Shown piece by piece: positions 1 to 50,884 of a stretch of DNA of 64,000 bases (the first letter of the stretch is position 1; every line of letters begins with the position of its first letter). Origin of the DNA: Candidatus Nanosyncoccus sp. (lineage in GTDB: Bacteria; Patescibacteriota; Saccharimonadia; Saccharimonadales; Saccharimonadaceae). Under the pieces are notes generated by a model. It ran no database searches. It was not told the origin of the DNA and saw nothing but the letters and a program-made list of their open reading frames with translations. Location: assembly GCA_045646085.1 (NCBI GenBank), contig JAZRJZ010000006.1:17164-81163 (forward strand), in the 5' to 3' direction. A program made the position numbers and the translations under genes.

Positions 1-2
1 TT

Positions 3-245
3 CTTGAATTGCCCGAAGGCTCTTTGCCGCTAGATTTTGCTTATCGACTCCACTCTGAAATCGGCGATCACGTAGTAGGGGTCAAAATCAACGGCAAAAT
101 GTCAAATCTGAATAAAAAATTAAATCAGGGTGACGTCGTTGAGATTCTCACTTCGAAAAATCAAACTCCAAAGTCTTCATGGATGGATAAAATTATTACT
201 CCCCATGCCCGTCAAAAGCTTCGCCGCGCCCTCAAAAAAGCATAA
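3..245 (+). CDS. RelA/SpoT-family protein, C-terminal end with TGS domain (5' part lies outside the window)
   Basis: The translation ...LPLDFAYRLHSEIGDHVVGVKINGKMSNLNKKLNQGDVVEILT matches the TGS-domain signature of RelA/SpoT homologs. The ORF is open to the window edge. Confidence 0.7.
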   Translation, partial: LELPEGSLPLDFAYRLHSEIGDHVVGVKINGKMSNLNKKLNQGDVVEILTSKNQTPKSSWMDKIITPHARQKLRRALKKA

Positions 246-294
246 AAAATGGAGCCGTTTGCCACTTGGGACGCTCCGCGCTCCAAACGAAGTT

Positions 295-350
295 TGGAGC
301 CGATGGCAGGGTTCGCCCCGAGCAAAGCGAGGTACGAACCCCAATTTTTT
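295..350. repeat. Exact 21-nt copy of the tRNA-Thr 3' end (295-315 = 372-392), closed into a hairpin (308-342) and followed by a T-run
   Basis: Direct sequence comparison. The stem is GGGTTCG/CGAACCC with a 19-nt loop, followed by AATTTTTT on the + strand. Confidence 0.8.
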
Positions 351-371
351 GACATTTTTGTGAAACAAAAA

Positions 372-447
372 TGGAGCCGATGGCAGGGTTCGAACCTGTG
401 ACCTGCTCGTTACGAATGAGCTGCTCTACCAACTGAGCTACATCGGC
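372..447 (-). tRNA. tRNA-Thr (anticodon CGU)
   Basis: Cloverleaf on the minus strand: GCCGATG acceptor, GCTCAGTTGGTAGAGC D-arm, anticodon loop TTCGTAA, GGTTCGAACC T-arm, encoded CCA. Confidence 0.9.
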
Positions 448-506
448 ACTCTTTTATTATACCATATTTGTGCTATAATCATAATAACAATAAGGAGATA
501 ACACCG

Positions 507-1112
507 ATGTCAAAAACTGAGATCATCAAACGGCCTATCGAACAGCTCGGCAGCAGCCTCAAAAAGTCCGCCTGGGCGGCAGTTTTCGAATCTCTAATCA
601 CTATCATTCTAGGGGTGTTACTAATTGTCTGGCCCGACATTGTCATCAAAGTTATCGCCTATGTTGTAGGAGCCTTCCTCATTATCAAAGGTGCCTATCA
701 AGTAATCAATTATTTCGTCGTCAAAGGTCAGAACGACTTCTTCAACAACAACTTTCTCAGTGGCGTAATATCCGTCTTAATCGGTCTAGCTCTTTTGCTT
801 ATCGGCGAGGAGATCGCCAACGTTTTTCGAATCATTATCGGCATCTGGATGATTTACGAATCATTAGTTCGCATTAATACAGCAATAAAATTCCACGCCG
901 CCGGCATCAACGCTTGGAGATACATCCTTATACTCGCATTAATGATGCTTGTACTTGGCGTCTTTGTCACCTTCTACAGTGGCGCCGTTGTCGCCTTAAT
1001 TGGCTGGATGATGGTTCTTGTTGGTATTATTGGTATAATCAGTGACACTATGTTTATTCAATATATTAACCAAGTTAGTGAAGCCATCACGGGGAAAGCA
1101 AAAGAAAAATAA
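507..1112 (+). CDS. HdeD/DUF308-like integral membrane protein
   Basis: Repeated hydrophobic DUF308-type segments are present. The start was moved to the ATG at 507, behind the AAGGAG RBS. Confidence 0.5.
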   Translation: MSKTEIIKRPIEQLGSSLKKSAWAAVFESLITIILGVLLIVWPDIVIKVIAYVVGAFLIIKGAYQVINYFVVKGQNDFFNNNFLSGVISVLIGLALLLIGEEIANVFRIIIGIWMIYESLVRINTAIKFHAAGINAWRYILILALMMLVLGVFVTFYSGAVVALIGWMMVLVGIIGIISDTMFIQYINQVSEAITGKAKEK

Positions 1113-1114
1113 CA

Positions 1115-1477
1115 ATGAAAAGCTTAAAATCTGATTTCCAAAAGATATATCAAAACGAGCGGGGTATTTTAATCGTCATGATTCTTAATTTTGTCCTCTC
1201 AATTGTATTGATGATTTTTTCAATCATTAGCCTCAATCCAGAGAGCGCTGTAGTGAAAGTTGGATATGGCGATATTGGCGGCTATCGTGATGGTTCTTGG
1301 ATCGACATTCTCGCTTTCCCATTACTTGCCATCATCTTTGGGATTCTCCATAGTTTGCTCGCGGTACGCATCTTTCACAAGCGCGGTAGTGGGATGGCAA
1401 AGTTTTTCCTCATCATCACATCAATTCTAATTCTAGGAACTTTTCTAGTTTTAATTCGTCTACTCGGAGAGCGGTAA
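1115..1477 (+). CDS. Small membrane protein, unknown function
   Basis: The ORF is tightly packed with its neighbours and has 3-4 hydrophobic helices. Confidence 0.5.
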   Translation: MKSLKSDFQKIYQNERGILIVMILNFVLSIVLMIFSIISLNPESAVVKVGYGDIGGYRDGSWIDILAFPLLAIIFGILHSLLAVRIFHKRGSGMAKFFLIITSILILGTFLVLIRLLGER

Positions 1478-3103
1478 ATGCGCAAAAATCTAGAAATACC
1501 ACAAGGGAAGCGCGAACCGCTCTATCGTTTTCTAGAAATTTTGCCAGGCGCAATTTCATATAGTGCTATCATTTTATTATTTGTTTTGTCATGGTTAGAC
1601 CCAGTCATCGCCTCAGTCTACCTCTTTACAATCATCGCTATTACTCTTGTTAAAGCGGTCGGAGTAGCATACCGCACCATTCAAGGATATAAAGTCATCG
1701 AACGCGCAATGCGCGTAAACTGGCGTGGGCGTGTAGAGGATCTCGAAAACCCTCATGATGCCTATGAGCGCCTTCACGACGATAATAATAAAAGCTATCA
1801 TTTCGAAGAACATCTCGAAAATCTAAAAATGATGACTGCAATGGAAAGTGAATACCCCAAGCCCTCCAAGATTTACCACGCAGTAATCATGACGGCTTAT
1901 GATGAAGGATTCGAGGTGCTAGACCCTTCGATAGAGGCCGTAGTTAATTCTACTTTCCCCAAGGATCATATCATTTTTGTCTTGGCCTACGAAGAGCGGG
2001 GTGGCGAAGCAATCGAAAACACCGCAAAAGAGTTAGCTAAAAAATACAAAGGCGTGTTCAAAGATTTTATTCTTTCAAAACACCCTGCCGATTTACCAAA
2101 CGAAGTAGTAGGGAAGGGACCAAACCTGACCTTTGCCGGCTACGAATTAGCAAAATACGTCAAAGACAAACATTTACCGGTAGAAAACATTATAGTTACG
2201 TCGCTAGATAGCGACAATCATGTCGCACCCAAATATTTTGACTCAGTGGCTTACGAATTCATTACGCACCCCAATCGTCAGCGCCTCAGCTATCAGCCAG
2301 TTTCTCTCTTTACTAATAACATCTGGGACGCACCTGCCCCATCGCGTGTAATCGCTGTCTCAAACTCATTTTTTAACGTAATTACCACAATGCGTCCACA
2401 TGCACTCAGGAACTTCGCTTCTCATTCGCAGCCTCTCCAAGCACTTGAAGCGATGGATTTTTGGTCCAAACGTACCATCGTAGAAGACGGACATCAATTC
2501 TGGCGTAGTTTATTCTTCTTTAATGGGGATTATTATGTTCTCCCAATTCGTATTCCAATCTATCAGGACGCCGTGATTGATGAGACCTTCTGGAAAACCG
2601 TTAAGGCCCAATTTATTCAAGTGCGCCGCTGGTATTACGGCGCCAGTGACGTTGCCTACGTCGGCTCTCGTTTATTCGTCTCTAAAGAAAAACGCATCGT
2701 GCCTTTTTGGCAGCTATTTCCCAAATTTTGGCGCTTATTAGACGGCCACGTCACCCTAGCAATCCTAGCTCCCATCGTAGCGTTTGGCGGCTGGGTACCA
2801 TTCATCATGAATATGTCATCTCATAATATGGTCGCCTACAGTATCCCCGGTATTGTAGGGGTCGTTGAAACCTTCGCTTCAATCGGCTTAATTGTCTCAA
2901 TTTTAGTTTCATTCAAAATCCTACCCAAACGCCCTAAAAAATACCGCAAAGGGAAGAATGTTCTGATGGTTGTTCAGTGGGTTTTGATGCCAATCACCTC
3001 AATCTTATATCAGTCAATTGCCGGATTTTACTCCCAAACTCGTCTTATGCTCGGCCTCTACATGGAAAAATTCGACGTCACTAAAAAGGTCGTCAAAACA
3101 TGA
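1478..3103 (+). CDS. Membrane-bound family-2 glycosyltransferase (processive, cellulose/chitin-synthase-like)
   Basis: It has N- and C-terminal TM segments, an SLDSDN acidic motif and a QVRRW (QxxRW) motif. Confidence 0.65.
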   Translation: MRKNLEIPQGKREPLYRFLEILPGAISYSAIILLFVLSWLDPVIASVYLFTIIAITLVKAVGVAYRTIQGYKVIERAMRVNWRGRVEDLENPHDAYERLHDDNNKSYHFEEHLENLKMMTAMESEYPKPSKIYHAVIMTAYDEGFEVLDPSIEAVVNSTFPKDHIIFVLAYEERGGEAIENTAKELAKKYKGVFKDFILSKHPADLPNEVVGKGPNLTFAGYELAKYVKDKHLPVENIIVTSLDSDNHVAPKYFDSVAYEFITHPNRQRLSYQPVSLFTNNIWDAPAPSRVIAVSNSFFNVITTMRPHALRNFASHSQPLQALEAMDFWSKRTIVEDGHQFWRSLFFFNGDYYVLPIRIPIYQDAVIDETFWKTVKAQFIQVRRWYYGASDVAYVGSRLFVSKEKRIVPFWQLFPKFWRLLDGHVTLAILAPIVAFGGWVPFIMNMSSHNMVAYSIPGIVGVVETFASIGLIVSILVSFKILPKRPKKYRKGKNVLMVVQWVLMPITSILYQSIAGFYSQTRLMLGLYMEKFDVTKKVVKT

Positions 3104-3129
3104 TTTAGAATAATAGGTTTAAAATACGT

Positions 3130-4119
3130 ATGACAGAATCATTACATAATCATAGCGAGCGAGGTAGCAAAGGCCAAGAACCAACAAGGTGGGATGAATT
3201 AAAAGACATTCCTTTTAATAATGTGAACCAAGCTGAAGACCACGAGAGCGAACAACCACTGTATGAAACAGAGTTAGTTTCTCCCTCTGATGTTTTGAGT
3301 GATATTCAAGAATACACAATCAAGGACGGCAAGGTTTATTCAAAAGAAACCAGCCAAGAAGAAACTGATGAAAATACTATCCTTAGAGTAAAAACATCAA
3401 AGTTACTGTTCAACGAAGCTAAAAGGCTCCGTGATAGGGAATCACATATGCTTGGTGATAGATTTACCGACAGAGGGCCAAACTATTATGTAGATAGGAC
3501 AATGGATAAATATGGTTTCAAGAATGAGGATACTAAATTTGCCGAAGGTAAACTTTTAAAAGACCTAACTAATAATGGCGCTCATCATCAAACAATATTA
3601 GCGGATGATTTAACTGGTTCACAATACGATATGTTTGTGGGCAAAAAAGGAGATCTTGGCAAAGCTCTCTTAAAACGTAGACTTAAACAACACGGGTTAA
3701 AAATGACTAACTTAGAAGTGACTTTAGATTCCTCTACTTTTAAGAAAGACGGATTTTCAACCGTAGACATAAGGGTCGACACTACGTCAACCTCAGTACC
3801 TGAAAATAATCCAGATAGTTCATATACTCTTCATCACCCTGCAACAAGTCAGTTAGGTCAGCTTGAGGCAGAGTTGAAAAAAGCTCAGGATGACGGCGAC
3901 GAGGAGGCCGCGAAAGGATATCGTGCCGCATTAAAAATGGTCGTCGAAAGAAATCGTCTTAATGTATCTCCTGAAGAATGGAGTAACATGAGCGATAATC
4001 AAAAAGAAAGATTTTATATAATAAAGATGAAAGAGGAAAAAATATTAGGAGACAAAGAGGCCTTTAACTATTGGAACGCCAATCTTCAACGCCTAAAAGA
4101 TAAATCAGCAAGGAATTAG
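3130..4119 (+). CDS. Hypothetical acidic protein
   Basis: Long ORF with no recognisable motif. Confidence 0.5.
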   Translation: MTESLHNHSERGSKGQEPTRWDELKDIPFNNVNQAEDHESEQPLYETELVSPSDVLSDIQEYTIKDGKVYSKETSQEETDENTILRVKTSKLLFNEAKRLRDRESHMLGDRFTDRGPNYYVDRTMDKYGFKNEDTKFAEGKLLKDLTNNGAHHQTILADDLTGSQYDMFVGKKGDLGKALLKRRLKQHGLKMTNLEVTLDSSTFKKDGFSTVDIRVDTTSTSVPENNPDSSYTLHHPATSQLGQLEAELKKAQDDGDEEAAKGYRAALKMVVERNRLNVSPEEWSNMSDNQKERFYIIKMKEEKILGDKEAFNYWNANLQRLKDKSARN

Positions 4120-4179
4120 CTCGCACCGTTAGGTCCGAGTCCCGTTTTTTTGAGGTTTTGTGCCAACAAAAATGGTGGG
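4119..4179. repeat. Left copy of a ~60-nt direct repeat (hairpin-loop CACCGTTAGGTC + T-run + spacer + TGGTGGG); its partner is at 5896-5955
   Basis: Hand alignment of gctcgcaccgttaggtccgagtcccgttttttt...aacaaaaatggtggg against 5896-5955 shows only a few mismatches. Confidence 0.75.
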
Positions 4180-4265
4180 GCTTAATTAACCAGGTTTTAA
4201 CAGTATATAAAGAAGATATACGTCTGAGGGCAATAACTTGCACCTCATGATATAATTAAAGGAAT

Positions 4266-5417
4266 ATGGTGTATTTGGACTATGCGGCAACATCGCCTAT
4301 ATTGCCAGAGGTGTTTAATGCTATGCATGACGCGGAAACGCGTTTCTTTGCGAATGCATCGGCTCTACATACTCCTGGACACCTAGCGATGAACGAAATC
4401 GAAGAGGTGCGAAAAACTTTAGCCAAACTGATTGGCGCGAAACCTTCTGAAATTATATTTACTTCTGGTGCCAGTGAGTCAAATAATACAATTGTTCGCA
4501 CGTTTGCCGAGCATCAGATCGAAACGTCGCCGCTTGAACACCATTCAATCATAGAGCTTGCCGACAAAGTCTCTGGCAACAAATTGCCAAAGCTCTATTC
4601 ATATATGCTCGCCAATAATGAAATCGGCGAAATTTTAGATATTCAAAAAATTGTAAAAGAAGCGCGAAGCCTTACAACCCCGAAAGAAGATTCGCTTTTC
4701 GAGCCGATTTCTGAATGGGGCAAGCCATTAGTAACCGACCGACGTGGCGCCTATGTACACTCGGATTTAACGCAGGTGCTTGGTAAGATTCCAATTAACG
4801 TTTACGAGCTCGGTCTAGATTACGCTACTTTCAGTGCGCACAAAATTGGCGGACCTATTGGCGTCGGCGCACTTTATGTTAAAGAGGGTGTTCCGTTCGC
4901 CCCACTAATAATTGGTGGAAATCAGGAAAATAAACGTCGTGGCGGCACCTATAACACTGTTGGCATTATTGGTTTCGGTGCTGCTCTCAAAAAGATTCAG
5001 CGCGAGAAGAGCTGGGAGCAATACAATACGCACGTTCGCAAGCTCCGCGACCTCTTAGCGCGGAGAATTCTTACTGAAATACCAGGTAGTAGTCTCAATA
5101 CCGATATAGCCCCAGGTAAATCCCTGCCAAATATCCTTAATGCTTCTTTTCAGGCCGCCGAAGGAGAGTCGATTCAGCTATATCTCGACGCTGAAGGCAT
5201 AGTGGTTTCGACTGGTTCGGCCTGCGCGTCTGGTGATATAAAGCCGAGCCATGTCCTGATGGCAAAAACTGGCGACGCCGAAGTGGCTCATTCGTCTATT
5301 CGTTTCTCGTTTGGGCTAGATAATACTGAAGCGGATATCGAAAGAGTAATGGAAGTTTTACCAGGTATTATTAACCGTTTGCAAAAGATAAGCACTGTAG
5401 AGATGAAGGAGACATAA
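4266..5417 (+). CDS. nifS: Cysteine desulfurase (NifS/IscS class V aminotransferase)
   Basis: N-terminus YLDYAATSP; SAHKIGGP (PLP lysine region); GSACASG active-site Cys loop. It overlaps the nifU start. Confidence 0.85.
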   Translation: MVYLDYAATSPILPEVFNAMHDAETRFFANASALHTPGHLAMNEIEEVRKTLAKLIGAKPSEIIFTSGASESNNTIVRTFAEHQIETSPLEHHSIIELADKVSGNKLPKLYSYMLANNEIGEILDIQKIVKEARSLTTPKEDSLFEPISEWGKPLVTDRRGAYVHSDLTQVLGKIPINVYELGLDYATFSAHKIGGPIGVGALYVKEGVPFAPLIIGGNQENKRRGGTYNTVGIIGFGAALKKIQREKSWEQYNTHVRKLRDLLARRILTEIPGSSLNTDIAPGKSLPNILNASFQAAEGESIQLYLDAEGIVVSTGSACASGDIKPSHVLMAKTGDAEVAHSSIRFSFGLDNTEADIERVMEVLPGIINRLQKISTVEMKET

Positions 5418-5830
5418 TGGAAAACCAAGAATGGGTTTATTCAGATAAAGTAAAAGATCATTTCATGAATCCGCGCAATTTTCTCTTTGGCGATGAAAGC
5501 CAGTTTGATTATGATGCGGTTGGAACCGTCGGGAATCCAGTCTGCGGTGACCAGATGAAGATGTACATCAAAGTCGAAGATAATAAAATAACTGATGCGC
5601 GTTGGAAAACTTATGGCTGCGCATCAGCGATAGCTTCAACCTCAGCGCTTTCCGAAATGATAAAAGGCAAAACTATTGATGAAGCATTAAAAATTGATGC
5701 TAAGGCAATCGATGAATATCTTGGCAACTTACCGAAACATAAATTCCACTGTTCGATTCTTGGCCACGAAGCACTTGCTGATGCGGTAAAAGAATACGAA
5801 AAGAACCATTCTGCAGGCGAGGGGATTTAA
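5417..5830 (+). CDS. nifU: NifU/IscU-type Fe-S cluster scaffold
   Basis: The motifs GNPVCGD, YGCASAIAS and HCSILG supply the three scaffold cysteines. Confidence 0.85.
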   Translation: MENQEWVYSDKVKDHFMNPRNFLFGDESQFDYDAVGTVGNPVCGDQMKMYIKVEDNKITDARWKTYGCASAIASTSALSEMIKGKTIDEALKIDAKAIDEYLGNLPKHKFHCSILGHEALADAVKEYEKNHSAGEGI

Positions 5831-5879
5831 CAAACATTTATAGATTACGAAATAGTTAAAAATTATTTTATAAACCGTT

Positions 5880-5927
5880 TGGTGGGTTGTGAGGGGCTCG
5901 CACCGTTAGGTCCGAGCCCCGCTTTTT
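5880..5927. repeat. Exact 21-nt copy of the tRNA-Val 3' end (5880-5900 = 5949-5969), closed into a hairpin GGGGCTCG/CGAGCCCC and followed by a T-run
   Basis: Direct sequence comparison. On the + strand it looks like the intrinsic terminator of nifU. Confidence 0.8.
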
Positions 5928-5948
5928 GCAGTTTTCGTGAAACAAAAA

Positions 5949-6025
5949 TGGTGGGTTGTGAGGGGCTCGAACCCCCGACCTTCTCGGTGTAAACGAGACG
6001 CTCTAGCCAACTGAGCTAACAACCC
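5949..6025 (-). tRNA. tRNA-Val (anticodon UAC)
   Basis: Minus-strand cloverleaf: GGGTTGT acceptor, anticodon loop TTTACAC, GGGGGTTCGAGCCCCT T-arm, encoded CCA. Confidence 0.9.
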
Positions 6026-6225
6026 ATTGTCGTTATTATACCACAAAACCTTCTTTTTAAAACCATAAGCAGTTACAAAACCTTCAAATTTCAAATCTTC
6101 TTCACCCCTGTTTAAATTTTGCAATTTTGAAAGATATGAAACAATTGTGTCATATCTTTTAAAATCAAAAATTTATTTTTCAAATAATCTGCTAGAATAA
6201 CTTCAACGGAGGAGAAAGGAAGAAA

Positions 6226-6894
6226 ATGTTAAAAATAGTGGTTTTTGATTGCGGATATGGTGGAGAATTTTTTGCAGACAAATTAAAAGAGGATTTACCA
6301 ATAATCGAAATAATTCGCGTAATTGATTGGCGTAATGCCGACAAATATCTAAAGAGCCCAAAACTAGCTAGGAAATATGCCACGGAGGCACTTCGCCCCT
6401 ATCTCGGCAGAGTAGATTTGATCGTCCTAGCAAATCATTTACTAGGGATTACCAGCCTCAAATATTTTTGTCGCAAATATAAGAATCAAAAATTCCTGGG
6501 TTTTAGTTTAAAACAACCAGACTCATTCATAAAACATGATGTTTTAATTCTAACCACTCAAGCCATCACAAAGACCAAGAGTTACTATAATTATCTTTTT
6601 CAGCTCAAAAGAAAAACTAAGACCCTCTCTCTAGATTCTTGGCCGCTCAAAATCGATGACGGGGAATTAACTAGAGAGGAAATCCGCACCACCATTCTAA
6701 GCCCACTTCTAAAAGAAGACTTTTGTCCAAAAGAAATCGTGCTAGCCTGTTCTCAATTCAATGATATCAAGCCAGACCTCAAAGCTATTTTCGGGCAAAC
6801 CATCAAAATATATGATTGTTATGATGATACAATCCGAACCATTTGTAAAACTCTAAAGATTCGAGGCGGCACCGGTAAAAAGTCCAAACTATGA
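6226..6894 (+). CDS. Divergent Asp/Glu-racemase-like (MurI-like) protein
   Basis: N-terminus IVVFDCGYGGEFF resembles MurI VFDSGVGG. The first catalytic-Cys block reads LIVLANH (no Cys) and the second reads VLACSQF. Confidence 0.35.
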   Translation: MLKIVVFDCGYGGEFFADKLKEDLPIIEIIRVIDWRNADKYLKSPKLARKYATEALRPYLGRVDLIVLANHLLGITSLKYFCRKYKNQKFLGFSLKQPDSFIKHDVLILTTQAITKTKSYYNYLFQLKRKTKTLSLDSWPLKIDDGELTREEIRTTILSPLLKEDFCPKEIVLACSQFNDIKPDLKAIFGQTIKIYDCYDDTIRTICKTLKIRGGTGKKSKL

Positions 6895-6927
6895 TATAAT
6901 AAATAGAATAAAGCAAAGGGAGACAAA

Positions 6928-8664
6928 ATGAATGAATTAGAGAATATGAGGCACACTTTAAGTCATGTGCTTGCCGCTGCGGTTAAAGATCTCTATCCGA
7001 GCGTTAAGCTTGGCATCGGTCCAGCCATCGACAACGGTTTTTATTATGATATTGATTTCGGTAAGACCAAAATTTCCGATACAGATTTACCAAAAATAGA
7101 GAAAAAAATGCACGAAATCGCCAAACGAAATCTTAAAATGCAAAAACGCATCGTCTCCCGCGATGAAGCATTGAAATGGGCTAAAGAAAGTGGCCAAAAA
7201 TACAAAACCGAACTGATCGAAGAACTACCAAGAGACGAAGAAGTATCCTTTTACGATTTAGGTGATATCTTCACTGACTTATGCAAGGGCCCACACGCTA
7301 AAGACACCTCAAATCTCGGCATTTTTAAGCTAACTAAAGTCGCCGGCGCTTATTGGCGTGGCGATGAAAAGAGGGAAATGCTCACCCGCATCTACGGCGT
7401 AGCCTTCACAACAGAAGAAGAACTCAAAGCTTATCTCAAACAACAAGAAGAAGCCAAGGCTAGAGACCATCGCAAACTCGGCAAAGAACTAGATTTATTC
7501 TGTTATTCTGATTTAGTGGGTTCAGGTTTACCTTTATTCACTCCGCGCGGGACAATCCTAAGAGATTTGCTCAACGATTTAGCACAAAGCTACCGCATTG
7601 ACCGTGGCTATCAAAAGGTACGCATTCCTCACATAGCTAACATCGATCTCTACAAGACTTCCGGCCACTACGAAAAATTTCCAGAAATGTTCCAGTTTAT
7701 CTCTCAAGAATCCGGCGATCATTTAGCCTTAAAGCCAGTTTCGTGCCCCCATCACTCGCAAATCTTTGCAAGTTCGCCTAGGTCTTATAAAGATCTTCCG
7801 ATTAAGTATCTGGAAACCACCATGGTCTACCGCGATGAAAGAAAAGGTGAACTCGGCGGTCTTTCTCGCGTTCGTGCCATCACTCAAGATGATTCGCACG
7901 TGTTCTGCACCGAAAACCAAATTGGAGATATTTTTGGTGAATTAATTGAATCCGCCAAAGACCTCTACGCCAAGATAAATATGAAACTAAAGCTTCGCTT
8001 GTCTTTCCGTGATAATGGCGACGGTTATATTGGCACTCCCGAGATGTGGGCCAAAGCCGAAGGCGCCATTAAAGAAATGGCAGACAAATTCGAAATGGAT
8101 TACTTCATTGGCGAGGGCGAGGCAGCGATGTATGGCCCCAAAATGGATTTTATGGCCGTTGATGCGATCGGTCGCGAATGGCAACTTGCCACTGTTCAGT
8201 TAGATTATGCTTTGCCAGCTCGTTTCAAACTCGAATACACAGATGCCGATGGCTCCAAAAAGACTCCAATTATGATTCATTGCGCCTTGGTCGGCTCAAT
8301 TGAACGTTTTATGAGTGTCTATATTGAGCATACCGCTGGTTGGTTGCCAATGTGGTGCGCACCAGAGAATGTACGCATCCTTACCGTCAATAATCAAACT
8401 ACAGATTATGTCTCCGAGATTACAAATATTCTCGAAACCGTAGAATTAAACCAAGTACTGCCACACGGCAAGATTAGATATTCCGTCGATGACTCCGCCG
8501 ACTCTCTTGGCAAGAAAATCCGCCGCGCTACCGAACTCAGAATTCCTACCGTATTAATAGTTGGACCAAAAGACGCCGAAGAAAAAGTCGTTTCGGTTCG
8601 TCTTCGTGATAAAGAAGAAAAAGTTAAACTTACCAAGCTCGCAGACTACTTAAGGGAGCTATGA
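6928..8664 (+). CDS. thrS: Threonyl-tRNA synthetase (short form, no N-terminal TGS/editing extension)
   Basis: Class II core with motifs such as CPHHSQIF, RVRAITQDDSHVF and PIMIHCALVGSIERF, plus a C-terminal anticodon-binding domain. Confidence 0.9.
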   Translation: MNELENMRHTLSHVLAAAVKDLYPSVKLGIGPAIDNGFYYDIDFGKTKISDTDLPKIEKKMHEIAKRNLKMQKRIVSRDEALKWAKESGQKYKTELIEELPRDEEVSFYDLGDIFTDLCKGPHAKDTSNLGIFKLTKVAGAYWRGDEKREMLTRIYGVAFTTEEELKAYLKQQEEAKARDHRKLGKELDLFCYSDLVGSGLPLFTPRGTILRDLLNDLAQSYRIDRGYQKVRIPHIANIDLYKTSGHYEKFPEMFQFISQESGDHLALKPVSCPHHSQIFASSPRSYKDLPIKYLETTMVYRDERKGELGGLSRVRAITQDDSHVFCTENQIGDIFGELIESAKDLYAKINMKLKLRLSFRDNGDGYIGTPEMWAKAEGAIKEMADKFEMDYFIGEGEAAMYGPKMDFMAVDAIGREWQLATVQLDYALPARFKLEYTDADGSKKTPIMIHCALVGSIERFMSVYIEHTAGWLPMWCAPENVRILTVNNQTTDYVSEITNILETVELNQVLPHGKIRYSVDDSADSLGKKIRRATELRIPTVLIVGPKDAEEKVVSVRLRDKEEKVKLTKLADYLREL

Positions 8665-38627: not shown

Positions 38628-38704
38628 GGGGATATAGCTCAGCTGGTTAGAGCGCGTCACTGATAATGACGAGGTCTGTGGTTCAAGTCCACATATCCCC
38701 ACCA
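38628..38704 (+). tRNA. tRNA-Ile (anticodon GAU)
   Basis: GGGGATA acceptor, anticodon loop CTGATAA, GGTTCAAGTCC T-arm, encoded CCA. Confidence 0.9.
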
Positions 38705-38741
38705 AATTTTATCTAACTCGGCATTTTAGCCGATTTTTTAG
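38697..38741. repeat. Direct repeat copy 1 (last 8 nt of tRNA-Ile plus its trailer/terminator)
   Basis: CCCCACCAAATTTTATCTAACTCGGCATTTTAGCCGATTTTTTA is repeated at 39825-39870 with about 4 mismatches. Confidence 0.8.
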
Positions 38742-38915
38742 TGGTAAATTTCTGTTAAGTACCCTGCGGCAATAGTATGAAATTTTGAACAATTTTATGG
38801 CAAAAAACTGTCAAAAAACGCAGTTTTTACCCCTATAAAAATGTCTGTTAATACCCTAAACAATTTGGTCTCACAAAAAGCACCTGCAATATAAAACTGC
38901 GATGCTTTTTAAACC

Positions 38916-39731
38916 TTAGTTATTCGTAAAATCCGACGTTGCGAATTGTTCTAATTCTTTAACAGTTCCAGATTCCGCGTTCAAGCTATAGATAGCCCTG
39001 TGATACAATCTCTGAGTGCCGTTGTTATAATGGCAACTATAATTTACGGCAATTGGTATATCCGTACTTAAATCAAAGCCTAGAGATTGAGTCAAATAAT
39101 TATGCCCATTCATATATTCTACCGAGAATGATTCGCATTGAGAAAGATATATTTTATCATCATTAGAATAAAGATTATACTTGGCAACTTCTGGCATTCC
39201 GTTTTTAATCTTTTGATCTGTCAAAGGTTTCATTGCTGAAACTAAATCGAATTGTCTTAAATCATCAGTCGAACCAAGCTTTTTAGTATCCAAGATATAA
39301 TACTTGTCGTCTTCGGAAGAAATGTTGTTGAGGGCCGTTCTAGTACCGCCACTGACGTAAACTAGTTCGTAACGCTGATTTTCTGCATTGCCAAACTTAT
39401 TCACAAATAAAGAATAATTTCCGTTAGAAGTAGACGTCGTTGACTCTTCGGTTATATCGTCAGCCGTAGTTATTTCCGATAACTCATCCTGCTTAGAAAT
39501 ACTTTGTTCTGCTTTTGTGCTTTCTTCTTGCTCAGCCATTTGGTTTTTTAGATTCTCGATTTCTGTACTACTTGAATTATTCTGAATCATACCATAAACA
39601 CCAAACCCAATACCACAAACAGCCACAATACACGCAACTGCCGTAGTGATTTTTAATCCATTACCATTTTTTTGCTTATTTTCTACTATTGGCGCTACTG
39701 GTACCCCAGTATCAGAATTTTGTTCCATCAA
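38916..39731 (-). CDS. Hypothetical membrane-anchored protein
   Basis: One TM helix near the N-terminus. It is the only gene between the two direct-repeat copies. Confidence 0.5.
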   Translation of the reverse strand: MMEQNSDTGVPVAPIVENKQKNGNGLKITTAVACIVAVCGIGFGVYGMIQNNSSSTEIENLKNQMAEQEESTKAEQSISKQDELSEITTADDITEESTTSTSNGNYSLFVNKFGNAENQRYELVYVSGGTRTALNNISSEDDKYYILDTKKLGSTDDLRQFDLVSAMKPLTDQKIKNGMPEVAKYNLYSNDDKIYLSQCESFSVEYMNGHNYLTQSLGFDLSTDIPIAVNYSCHYNNGTQRLYHRAIYSLNAESGTVKELEQFATSDFTNN

Positions 39732-39824
39732 ATTTCCTTTCTATAATACTTATGTTTCTATTATAGCATGGTTTAATATTTCTCGTACGTCTTCCTTATA
39801 GATTGTTAATACCTGCCCAATTTG

Positions 39825-39870
39825 CCCCCACCAGATTTTATCTAACTCGGCAACATAGCCGATTTTTTAT
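39825..39870. repeat. Direct repeat copy 2 (tRNA-Ile 3' end plus trailer)
   Basis: CCCCCACCAGATTTTATCTAACTCGGCAACATAGCCGATTTTTTAT. Confidence 0.8.
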
Positions 39871-50743: not shown

Positions 50744-50790
50744 TGGCTCCCGGGACTGGACTCGATTCGAAGAACGATGTCCAGCTTTTT
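50744..50790. repeat. Exact 22-nt copy of the tRNA-Asn 3' end (50744-50765 = 50810-50831), closed into a hairpin CTGGAC/GTCCAG and followed by a T-run
   Basis: Direct sequence comparison. Confidence 0.8.
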
Positions 50791-50809
50791 GGGCGCATCG
50801 TTAGATGCG

Positions 50810-50884
50810 TGGCTCCCGGGACTGGACTCGAACCAGCAACCTCGAAGTTAACAGCTTCTTGCTCCACCATTGAGCTACCCGGGA
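50810..50884 (-). tRNA. tRNA-Asn (anticodon GUU)
   Basis: Minus-strand cloverleaf: TCCCGGG acceptor, anticodon loop CTGTTAA, GGTTCGAGTCC T-arm, encoded CCA. Confidence 0.9.

Follow-up and report, generated by a model that had tools for sequence, protein, structure and literature searches.

The tRNA-Thr(CGU) gene in a 64,000-nt stretch of contig JAZRJZ010000006.1 from Candidatus Nanosyncoccus sp. (in the following the window) is trailed by an exact copy of its own 3' end. The same holds genome-wide for 16 of 43 tRNA genes, each of which has an exact 18-29-nt copy of its own 3' end 42-67 nt downstream. The displaced tRNA end looks like the outcome of DNA turnover and not like a working part of a tRNA. 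With moderate confidence, and judging by sequence comparison, we assume that DNA is recurrently inserted or duplicated at the conserved T-loop and 3' end of tRNA genes without an integrase, that such events regenerate the tRNA and displace a copy of its end, and that the accompanying hairpins may double as terminators. The genome under study (G000) is a Saccharibacteria draft of 705 kb in 25 contigs, of which the window is a part; metagenomes of sheep and cattle gut contain DNA near-identical to the window.

A preceding reading, made from the sequence of the window alone, had noticed the repeat at tRNA-Thr and described the order of elements in the trailer, and both descriptions were confirmed. 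The last 21 nt of the gene, from T-loop position 56 through the encoded CCA, are repeated at 21 of 21 positions, and in the tRNA sense the CCA is followed by an AT hairpin, an A-run, an antisense arm, a 19-nt loop, the copy, a further hairpin and a T-run (Table 1). The arm (342-335) and the start of the copy pair across the GC-rich loop (RNA fold of -20.6 kcal/mol, z -2.0). Beyond the copy, a 9-bp hairpin across its CCA, a second hairpin and the T-run (294-244) fold with -23.3 kcal/mol and z -3.2. The T-run at 244-249, after the second hairpin of a separate 45-nt unit, is terminator-like on the tRNA strand, and this unit is closed by a third, 8-nt copy of the tRNA-Thr end. Seen from the plus strand, the A-run of the trailer is a T-run that completes a terminator-like hairpin opposite the convergent relA/spoT-family gene. 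Independent Logan contigs from two other studies cover copy, spacer and tRNA start (X1, 295-401; X2, 255-396). Since these contigs stem from two unrelated runs, the arrangement at tRNA-Thr is not an assembly artefact.

The sequence-only reading had presented tRNA-Thr, tRNA-Val and tRNA-Asn as three odd loci of common design. All three are real, with exact copies at tRNA-Val and tRNA-Asn as well, but the number was understated. We found 21 exact units across the 16 tRNA genes, including arrays of four at Ser(UGA), two at Gln(CUG) and two at Arg(GCG). tRNA-Lys(CUU) carries a unit of ≈170 nt that spans a contig break, and decayed copies are present 3' of Val(GAC), Leu(GAG) and Ser(GCU). As a null test, all exact direct repeats of at least 16 nt within 300 nt were collected from the whole genome. 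Apart from 87-90-nt periodic repeats inside protein genes, nearly all of these short-range repeats lie at tRNA 3' ends, which excludes chance as the source of the Thr repeat.

Table 1 Features of the tRNA-Thr, tRNA-Val and tRNA-Asn loci (positions refer to the window).
Feature	Position	Strand	Basis
tRNA-Thr(CGU), encoded CCA	372-447	minus	ARAGORN; Rfam RF00005, 61.4 bits
Source segment S1 in the real tRNA-Thr, T-loop position 56 to CCA	372-392	minus	identical to 295-315
AT hairpin directly after CCA (7-bp stem, TTC loop); spacer common to tRNA-Val	355-371	minus	folding/comparison
A-run; 8-nt arm (342-335) complementary to the initial 7-8 nt of the copy	335-354	minus	fold; arm covaries in G011
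GC-rich hairpin tip, 19-nt loop of the copy hairpin	316-334	minus	comparison and fold
Displaced copy S2, exact 21-nt tRNA-Thr 3' end	295-315	minus	identity; independent contigs X1, X2
Second, separate 45-nt unit: 37-nt 'family 5' insert and 8-nt tRNA-end copy (250-257)	250-294	minus	contig absence, fold
relA/spoT-family gene, 3' end, convergent, stop codon 243-245	3-245	plus	NCBIfam TIGR00691, E 7e-26
tRNA-Val(UAC) 5949-6025, 48-nt spacer, exact 21-nt copy 5880-5900	5880-6025	minus	ARAGORN, identity
Distal 61-nt repeat: last 7 nt of tRNA-Val, spacer and first 5 nt of the copy	4119-4179	minus	53/61 identical to 5896-5955
tRNA-Asn(GUU) 50810-50884, 44-nt spacer with constant 12-nt tip, exact 22-nt copy 50744-50765	50744-50884	minus	ARAGORN, identity

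Every unit follows a common plan in which a trailer leads to an antisense arm, a hairpin tip and finally the sense copy. The trailer is a small hairpin with an A-run in some units and a terminator in others, either intrinsic with a T-run or bidirectional. Inserts measure 26-170 nt in this genome and 1.1-1.7 kb at two places of the window, and the intact tRNA gene is kept. The start of the copy is typical of the insert family and lies 8, 15-17, 18-19, 21, 22, 26 or 29 nt before the tRNA end; its usual end is the CCA. In the longest forms the arm spans the acceptor and T-stem strands, resulting in a minihelix-like hairpin, and the terminator palindrome extends into the tRNA end; in the tRNA-Glu unit, 22 of 24 positions are palindromic when read by eye. 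The strongest fold among those given here is the Val hairpin (-24.6 kcal/mol, z -5.1). The claim that the Thr and Val trailers have a spacer in common also holds, as their first 17 nt are the same, and the AT hairpin module of the Thr trailer additionally occurs 3' of tRNA-Asp and tRNA-Gln in other ruminant Saccharibacteria.

The arms complement the copy by Watson-Crick pairs, at the T-loop bases and also at those positions that form G-U pairs in the tRNA. Because they are complementary to the copy even at the latter, they are not leftovers of tRNA 5' strands, and an origin as T-stem and acceptor 5'-strand remnants of a decayed second tRNA gene was dropped for most units. Over 13 distinct units, arms pair with their local copies at 48 of 78 positions, compared to 33.9 ± 3.8 when the arms are re-dealt among the loci, and only 3 of 5000 shuffles reach this value. 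Several arms mismatch their own tRNA or are better suited to another: the Leu(UAA) arm fits Tyr, the Ser(UGA) arm fits Gln, and the Gln arm at locus L192 mismatches its own tRNA. Together with a 25-nt junction that is identical at Gln and Ser(UGA), these mismatched arms indicate that arm-plus-tip modules appear to move between tRNA loci, the sense copy always being local.

Tips are shared between units. The 12-nt tip TCGTTCTTCGAA is present at Asn, Gln and three Ser(UGA) units and, with one mismatch, at the decayed Val(GAC) copy (6 units). A GACC-loop-GGTG tip is found at Val, Ser(CGA) and Gly(UCC) and as a variant at Thr, and the pentamers CTTCG and CGAAG are approximately four times enriched in the spacers. 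The Thr tip is related to GC-rich mini-hairpins of other trailers and, in opposite orientation, to one in the tRNA-Val trailer of genome G004. When a 16-nt junction (the 12-nt tip plus TCGA) was searched in one genome per prokaryote species (596 Gb), most matches were due to chance, as expected for this amount of sequence; ten had a same-strand tRNA just upstream and were each followed by the end of that very tRNA. They represent eight tRNA species (Asn, Glu(CUC) three times, Gln, Arg(CCU), Ala(GGC), Asp, Ile(UAU) and Lys(UUU)), to which Ser(UGA) of the present genome adds a ninth. Nine of the ten records are labelled Saccharibacteria, mostly from goat, sheep and cattle gut, and one has no taxon label. 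The GACC-TTC-GGTG tip family is local: a 13-base pattern of this type matched in 4 of 401 genomes phylum-wide, compared to 7 for a reversed control, the pattern being too narrow.

The units are unevenly distributed among relatives. A 21-29-nt copy follows tRNA-Thr(CGU) in 3 of 19 congeners and is lacking in the other 16. Units are present at 7 of 36 tRNAs examined in genome G011 and at 8 of 35 in G004, mostly at other tRNAs than here and accompanied by decayed ones; G027, which belongs to another family, has units with structured spacers of ≈135-180 nt at 6 of 37 tRNAs. G011 carries a homologous Thr unit; a T-loop A-to-T difference there is common to tRNA and copy and has its complement in the arm. 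Of 49 metagenomic tRNA-Thr loci, no fewer than 15 are occupied, the trailers belonging to six or more unrelated families; many others are empty. Copy length in these loci is specific for the family (8; 15-17; 18-21; 21; 29 nt), and some empty sites keep synteny with the convergent relA/spoT-family gene. In comparison to the closest empty allele (L114), the present locus has 122 extra nt, located after the first 12 nt of the trailer, which both alleles have. Plain tandem duplication at tRNA-Thr was dropped, as the filled allele contains sequence foreign to the ancestral flank. The position or orientation of the tRNA-Thr gene relative to its neighbours also varies within the genus: in several congeners (loci L006, L013 and L014) it is oriented toward the gene of a small membrane protein (start at 507 of the window), here it is oriented away from it (372-520).

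Turnover is visible even between strains. A rumen strain contig (run X1) lacks exactly 250-294, with 249 joined to 295 (8 nt of ambiguity), and G011 has only the first Thr unit. The 45-nt unit therefore looks like a recent gain. It would have been gained at the end of the copy and not at the real tRNA, which points to a DNA-level target. Its family-5 insert also occurs after tRNA-Thr at loci L093, L102, L108 and L116, after tRNA-Pro(CGG) in the present genome and after tRNA-His in G004.

It had been proposed that the hairpins arose by tRNA duplication and terminate convergent genes. The situation at Thr and Val agrees with this in part, a hairpin and a T-run on the plus strand facing a relA/spoT-family gene and nifU, respectively. 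It does not apply throughout, since by crude calls of open reading frames (ORFs) the neighbours are convergent at 7 and co-directional at 9 of the 16 loci, the latter including Asn, and a general link of the units to convergent genes was not found. Units of the A-run type mostly face convergent genes and those of the T-run type co-directional ones, and a T-run of at least 5 nt, mostly with a visible preceding hairpin, lies between tRNA and copy in 8 of the 16 loci. The hairpins thus seem to behave like context-appropriate terminators. A near-identical Val-type hairpin without the full copy ends the ORF at 3130-4119, which fits such a role. The Thr hairpins fold, with the T-run 3 nt past the stem on the plus strand and 1 nt past it on the minus strand; a consensus terminator scan called none of them. 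The single-stranded acceptor-CCA part of the copy has no evident role. In RNA run X18, contigs were found on tRNA bodies only and continued into foreign flanks, which says nothing on transcription of the copies.

From these end products we propose the following course of events. The T-loop, which is partly palindromic (TTCGAA-like), and the 3' end are common to all tRNA genes and would be used as short homologies. Template switching, fold-back copying or illegitimate recombination could then generate the insertions, presumably together with a copy-and-paste transfer of arm-plus-tip modules between tRNA loci. Only products that regenerate the tRNA would survive, and the arms would subsequently become matched to the local copy. 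Such units could be retained since they do no harm and since their GC-rich hairpins, flanked by A- or T-runs, serve as terminators. For tRNA-Thr this would mean that transcription of the convergent relA/spoT-family gene (plus strand) stops at the first hairpin and that of the tRNA strand at the 250-294 unit.

Several points weigh against this proposal. The mechanism has been deduced from its products, no event having been observed. A 12-nt tip that is constant in different species and at different tRNAs, in combination with matched arms, could just as well indicate an RNA or DNA structure under selection or a true mobile element whose enzyme acts in trans. Most copies are exact, 21 units having no mismatch, which requires a recent origin, ongoing conversion or selection. 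Direct repeats of family 5 measure 8, 13, 23 or 47 nt at different loci, and no single simple model fits them. The negative result of the simple terminator scan at the Thr hairpins, finally, has to be counted here as well.

Alternatively, the units could belong to a non-autonomous mobile element or a site-specific cassette system, a possibility that we regard as rather unlikely. Hairpin modules, sometimes with genes, would be placed at tRNA 3' ends by a trans-acting recombinase or transposase that reads the T-arm-like hairpin, in a manner reminiscent of the attC cassettes of integrons or of Xer-dependent hairpin integration; as the enzyme one would have to assume the single Xer recombinase of the cell or one supplied by a phage or another cell. 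Such a system would account for discrete units that occur in arrays, vary among strains, and have family-specific junctions and constant tips at at least nine tRNA species in many genomes. It would also account for two gene islets of the window that are bracketed by repeats of tRNA ends. In the first, nifS-nifU (4266-5830, within a segment of ≈1.7 kb) is flanked by the 61-nt direct repeats 4119-4179 and 5896-5955. Rumen contigs with a joint from 4145 to 5925 correspond to the form without this segment. In contigs from two rumen runs, 5879 is joined to 4173, so that the end of the nifSU segment is connected with its start by way of the 7-nt tRNA end, as one would expect of a tandem or circular form. 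The segment may be a mobile or tandemly amplified cassette; the joints are leads only, because the contigs may derive from other strains. In the second islet, a one-gene segment of 1.1 kb (38697-39870) without an integrase lies between 47-nt repeats that consist of the last 8 nt of tRNA-Ile(GAU) and its terminator, with about four mismatches.

The search for an enzyme speaks against such a system. The sole tyrosine recombinase of the genome is of the XerC/XerD type and is encoded elsewhere than the units. Integron-integrase models yielded 125 and 87 bits at cut-offs of 265 and 435, with XerD/XerC as best matches, and an IntI is thus not present. A match to RVT_1, indicative of a reverse transcriptase, was absent from the genome. 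Besides the one Xer-type recombinase we found no dedicated enzyme, DDE, serine and HUH enzymes as well as Cas1 not having been searched for. Repeat lengths that differ within one family and arms that mismatch their target are likewise difficult to reconcile with a site-specific enzyme. As in miniature inverted-repeat transposable elements (MITEs) or REP-like elements, a conserved non-target sequence is present in many copies (the 12-nt tip in 6 units here and at 10 loci elsewhere, the family-5 insert at Thr, Pro and His). Terminal inverted repeats and a short target duplication of fixed form are lacking, however; the arms derive from the target and vary, and repeat lengths of 8 to 47 nt are encountered even in a single family. 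An origin by reverse transcription was considered, as the 18-nt copies start just after A58 like retroviral primer sites, and was dropped because the genome lacks a reverse transcriptase and the copies range from 8 to 29 nt. A CRISPR-like array was dropped as well, the spacers being near-identical within an array.

A broader version of this idea, which we put forward only tentatively, is that ultra-small Saccharibacteria and other members of the Candidate Phyla Radiation (CPR) possess an undescribed, integrase-free form of DNA movement. Any tRNA gene could be hit at its T-loop and 3' end by hairpin modules with a constant tip and a T-arm-matched stem, which would regenerate the gene, stack into arrays and occasionally carry cassettes such as nifS-nifU or a membrane-protein gene. 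If true, this would correspond to integron cassettes or to Xer-dependent hairpin integration, with tRNA genes as the anchor, and it would supply portable terminators as well.

Another proposal of the sequence-only reading was a functional, co-transcribed spare acceptor/T-arm. In its general form, read-through would yield an RNA module of the hairpin, the single-stranded acceptor 3' strand and the CCA, or in the longer forms a full acceptor/T-stem minihelix, that takes part in the maturation of tRNAs, diverts tRNA-binding enzymes or nucleases as a decoy, or provides a spare 3' part. The copy is identical to the end of the cognate tRNA, and a comparison of this genome with G011 shows concerted changes in tRNA, copy and arm. 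The arms are matched, the loop is constant, and the longer forms pair acceptor and T-stem strands like a minihelix substrate of RNase P or RNase Z. Moreover, the analogous repeats of E. coli are transcribed and yield RttR, the gene of which is annotated across them. An Rfam scan of window positions 1-7000 at E ≤ 1 detected only the two tRNAs and no homology to RttR/rtT, and the trailers together with the structured variant of ≈170 nt matched no known RNA family except for weak microRNA-type hairpin noise. An RNA module is difficult to reconcile with the patchy distribution over orthologous tRNAs of congeners, with decayed copies, with gain or loss at the strain level and with at least six unrelated designs at one and the same tRNA. 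The T-run that precedes the copy in half of the 16 loci, short forms without a 5' acceptor partner and arms that suit the wrong tRNA argue in the same direction. We therefore consider such a module unlikely. The spare acceptor in particular finds no support in these sequences: 16 of 19 congeners lack the 21-29-nt Thr copy, an absence that had been named beforehand as speaking against a function.

The third proposal, integrase att scars collapsed to short remnants, would have prophages or islands with an integrase integrate into the T-loop and later be deleted almost completely, leaving an attR site. As in the textbook att geometry of tRNA-integrating elements, the direct repeat covers the target tRNA between T-loop and 3' end, and the islets of 1.1-1.7 kb in the window have a like geometry. 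Random deletion would however leave remnants of widely different sizes and not discrete, family-specific spacers of 42-67 nt with conserved tips. Sixteen different tRNAs are too many for one integrase. Neither an integrase or its remnant nor cargo lies between or beside the repeats, the Xer-type recombinase is the only one present, and no phage contig of IMG/VR contains an exact match to the Thr 21-mer. We consider this history very improbable. An assembly or binning artefact at repeated tRNA sequences, which a draft of 25 contigs with one unit across a contig break might suggest, can practically be dismissed, as the arrangement recurs in independent contigs, in other genomes and in JGI/ENA metagenome contigs.

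In comparison to known systems, the closest precedent are the distal repeats of E. coli tyrT/tyrV. We checked strain MG1655 and found three 178-nt units after tyrV, each of which ends in the last 19 nt of the tRNA, from T-loop A58 to the CCA, with a junction as in the 18-19-nt units described here. In E. coli, an antisense arm to the T-stem (5 nt) and a mini-hairpin of the GCGAAGC type immediately precede the copy, which again resembles the units of this study. Units ending in an exact tRNA end of ≈19 nt including the CCA are thus common to both. E. coli, however, has them at one tRNA locus, whereas here 16 of 43 genes are concerned by several unrelated families of 42-170-nt units that show rapid gain and loss and no similarity to RttR.

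Full-text literature searches yielded no description of such mini-units, only of tRNA fragments from large integrated elements. Elements of 9-23 kb leave tRNA gene fragments that vary between strains and can form arrays (PMC9897764). Integrase-borne att repeats resemble the present units in combining an intact tRNA with a displaced 3' part that starts in the T-loop. The units differ in having neither integrase nor cargo, in their size of 42-170 nt instead of at least 9 kb, in their presence at many tRNAs of one 0.7-Mb genome, and in the matched antisense arm and constant tip that precede each copy. Integron cassette arrays likewise lie beside a fixed primary site; their units end in an imperfect palindrome able to terminate transcription, ORF-less units exist, and the cassettes have no integrase of their own. 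Here, however, an IntI is absent, the tip of the hairpin is conserved instead of its base, and the repeat is tRNA-specific.

REP/BIME, Correia/NEMIS, RPE and RUP repeats are, like the units, short, hairpin-forming, non-coding, multi-copy and strain-variable, and they are located at gene ends where they affect termination. They have fixed sequences, small or no target duplications and no tie to tRNA ends, while part of each unit described here is the sequence of the neighbouring tRNA itself, in sense and antisense. Tandem inversion duplications and quasi-palindrome template switching in Salmonella and E. coli produce a comparable sense-antisense-sense order with junctions at short hairpins. These are kilobase-scale, laboratory-selected and unstable; the units are natural, 60-200 nt long, have conserved tips and were in some cases seemingly copied between loci.

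Some further observations were made in the genome. A near-complete second tRNA-Glu(UUC) gene is located 125 nt upstream of the intact gene (C14:37338-37634) and has its leader in common with it. Its T-loop contains a 36-nt GC-rich insert with two GCGAAGC motifs, and its acceptor 3' strand is broken; together with a downstream 19-nt copy it constitutes a nested or broken tRNA arrangement. The contig break in the tRNA-Lys(CUU) trailer lies between C23:1-87 and C7:1-192, the latter carrying the structured unit of ≈170 nt. This unit is of the same family as those after tRNA-Tyr in G011 and after tRNA-Thr in L095 and L134, and its motif GTAGGAGCCGAATAAAA is also present after tRNA-Ile(UAU) and, in less strict form, after Ala(UGC) and Asp. 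Two near-identical sites (C3:17203-17219 and C22:25469-25485) combine a hairpin, a sequence ending in ACCA and an AT hairpin like that of Thr and Val, with no tRNA called alongside, and may be orphan units. The 87-90-nt periodic repeats lie in large protein genes that probably encode repeat-rich surface proteins. They are behind most assembly breaks, and many contig ends (in C3, C5, C9, C10, C13, C17, C21, C22 and C24) are located within them.

Copies of the kind described here are at risk of being annotated mistakenly as att sites of islands or as tRNA pseudogenes. For the E. coli tyrT repeats, a puzzle of 45 years, a large natural family has now become available for comparison. The tRNA-matched arms, the constant tip and the islets of 1-2 kb point to a simple insertion of terminators, and perhaps of genes, beside tRNA genes. 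With more than one third of the tRNA genes of a 0.7-Mb genome affected, the ends of tRNA genes are where such reduced genomes mainly undergo structural turnover on a small scale, and they do so without the usual integrases.

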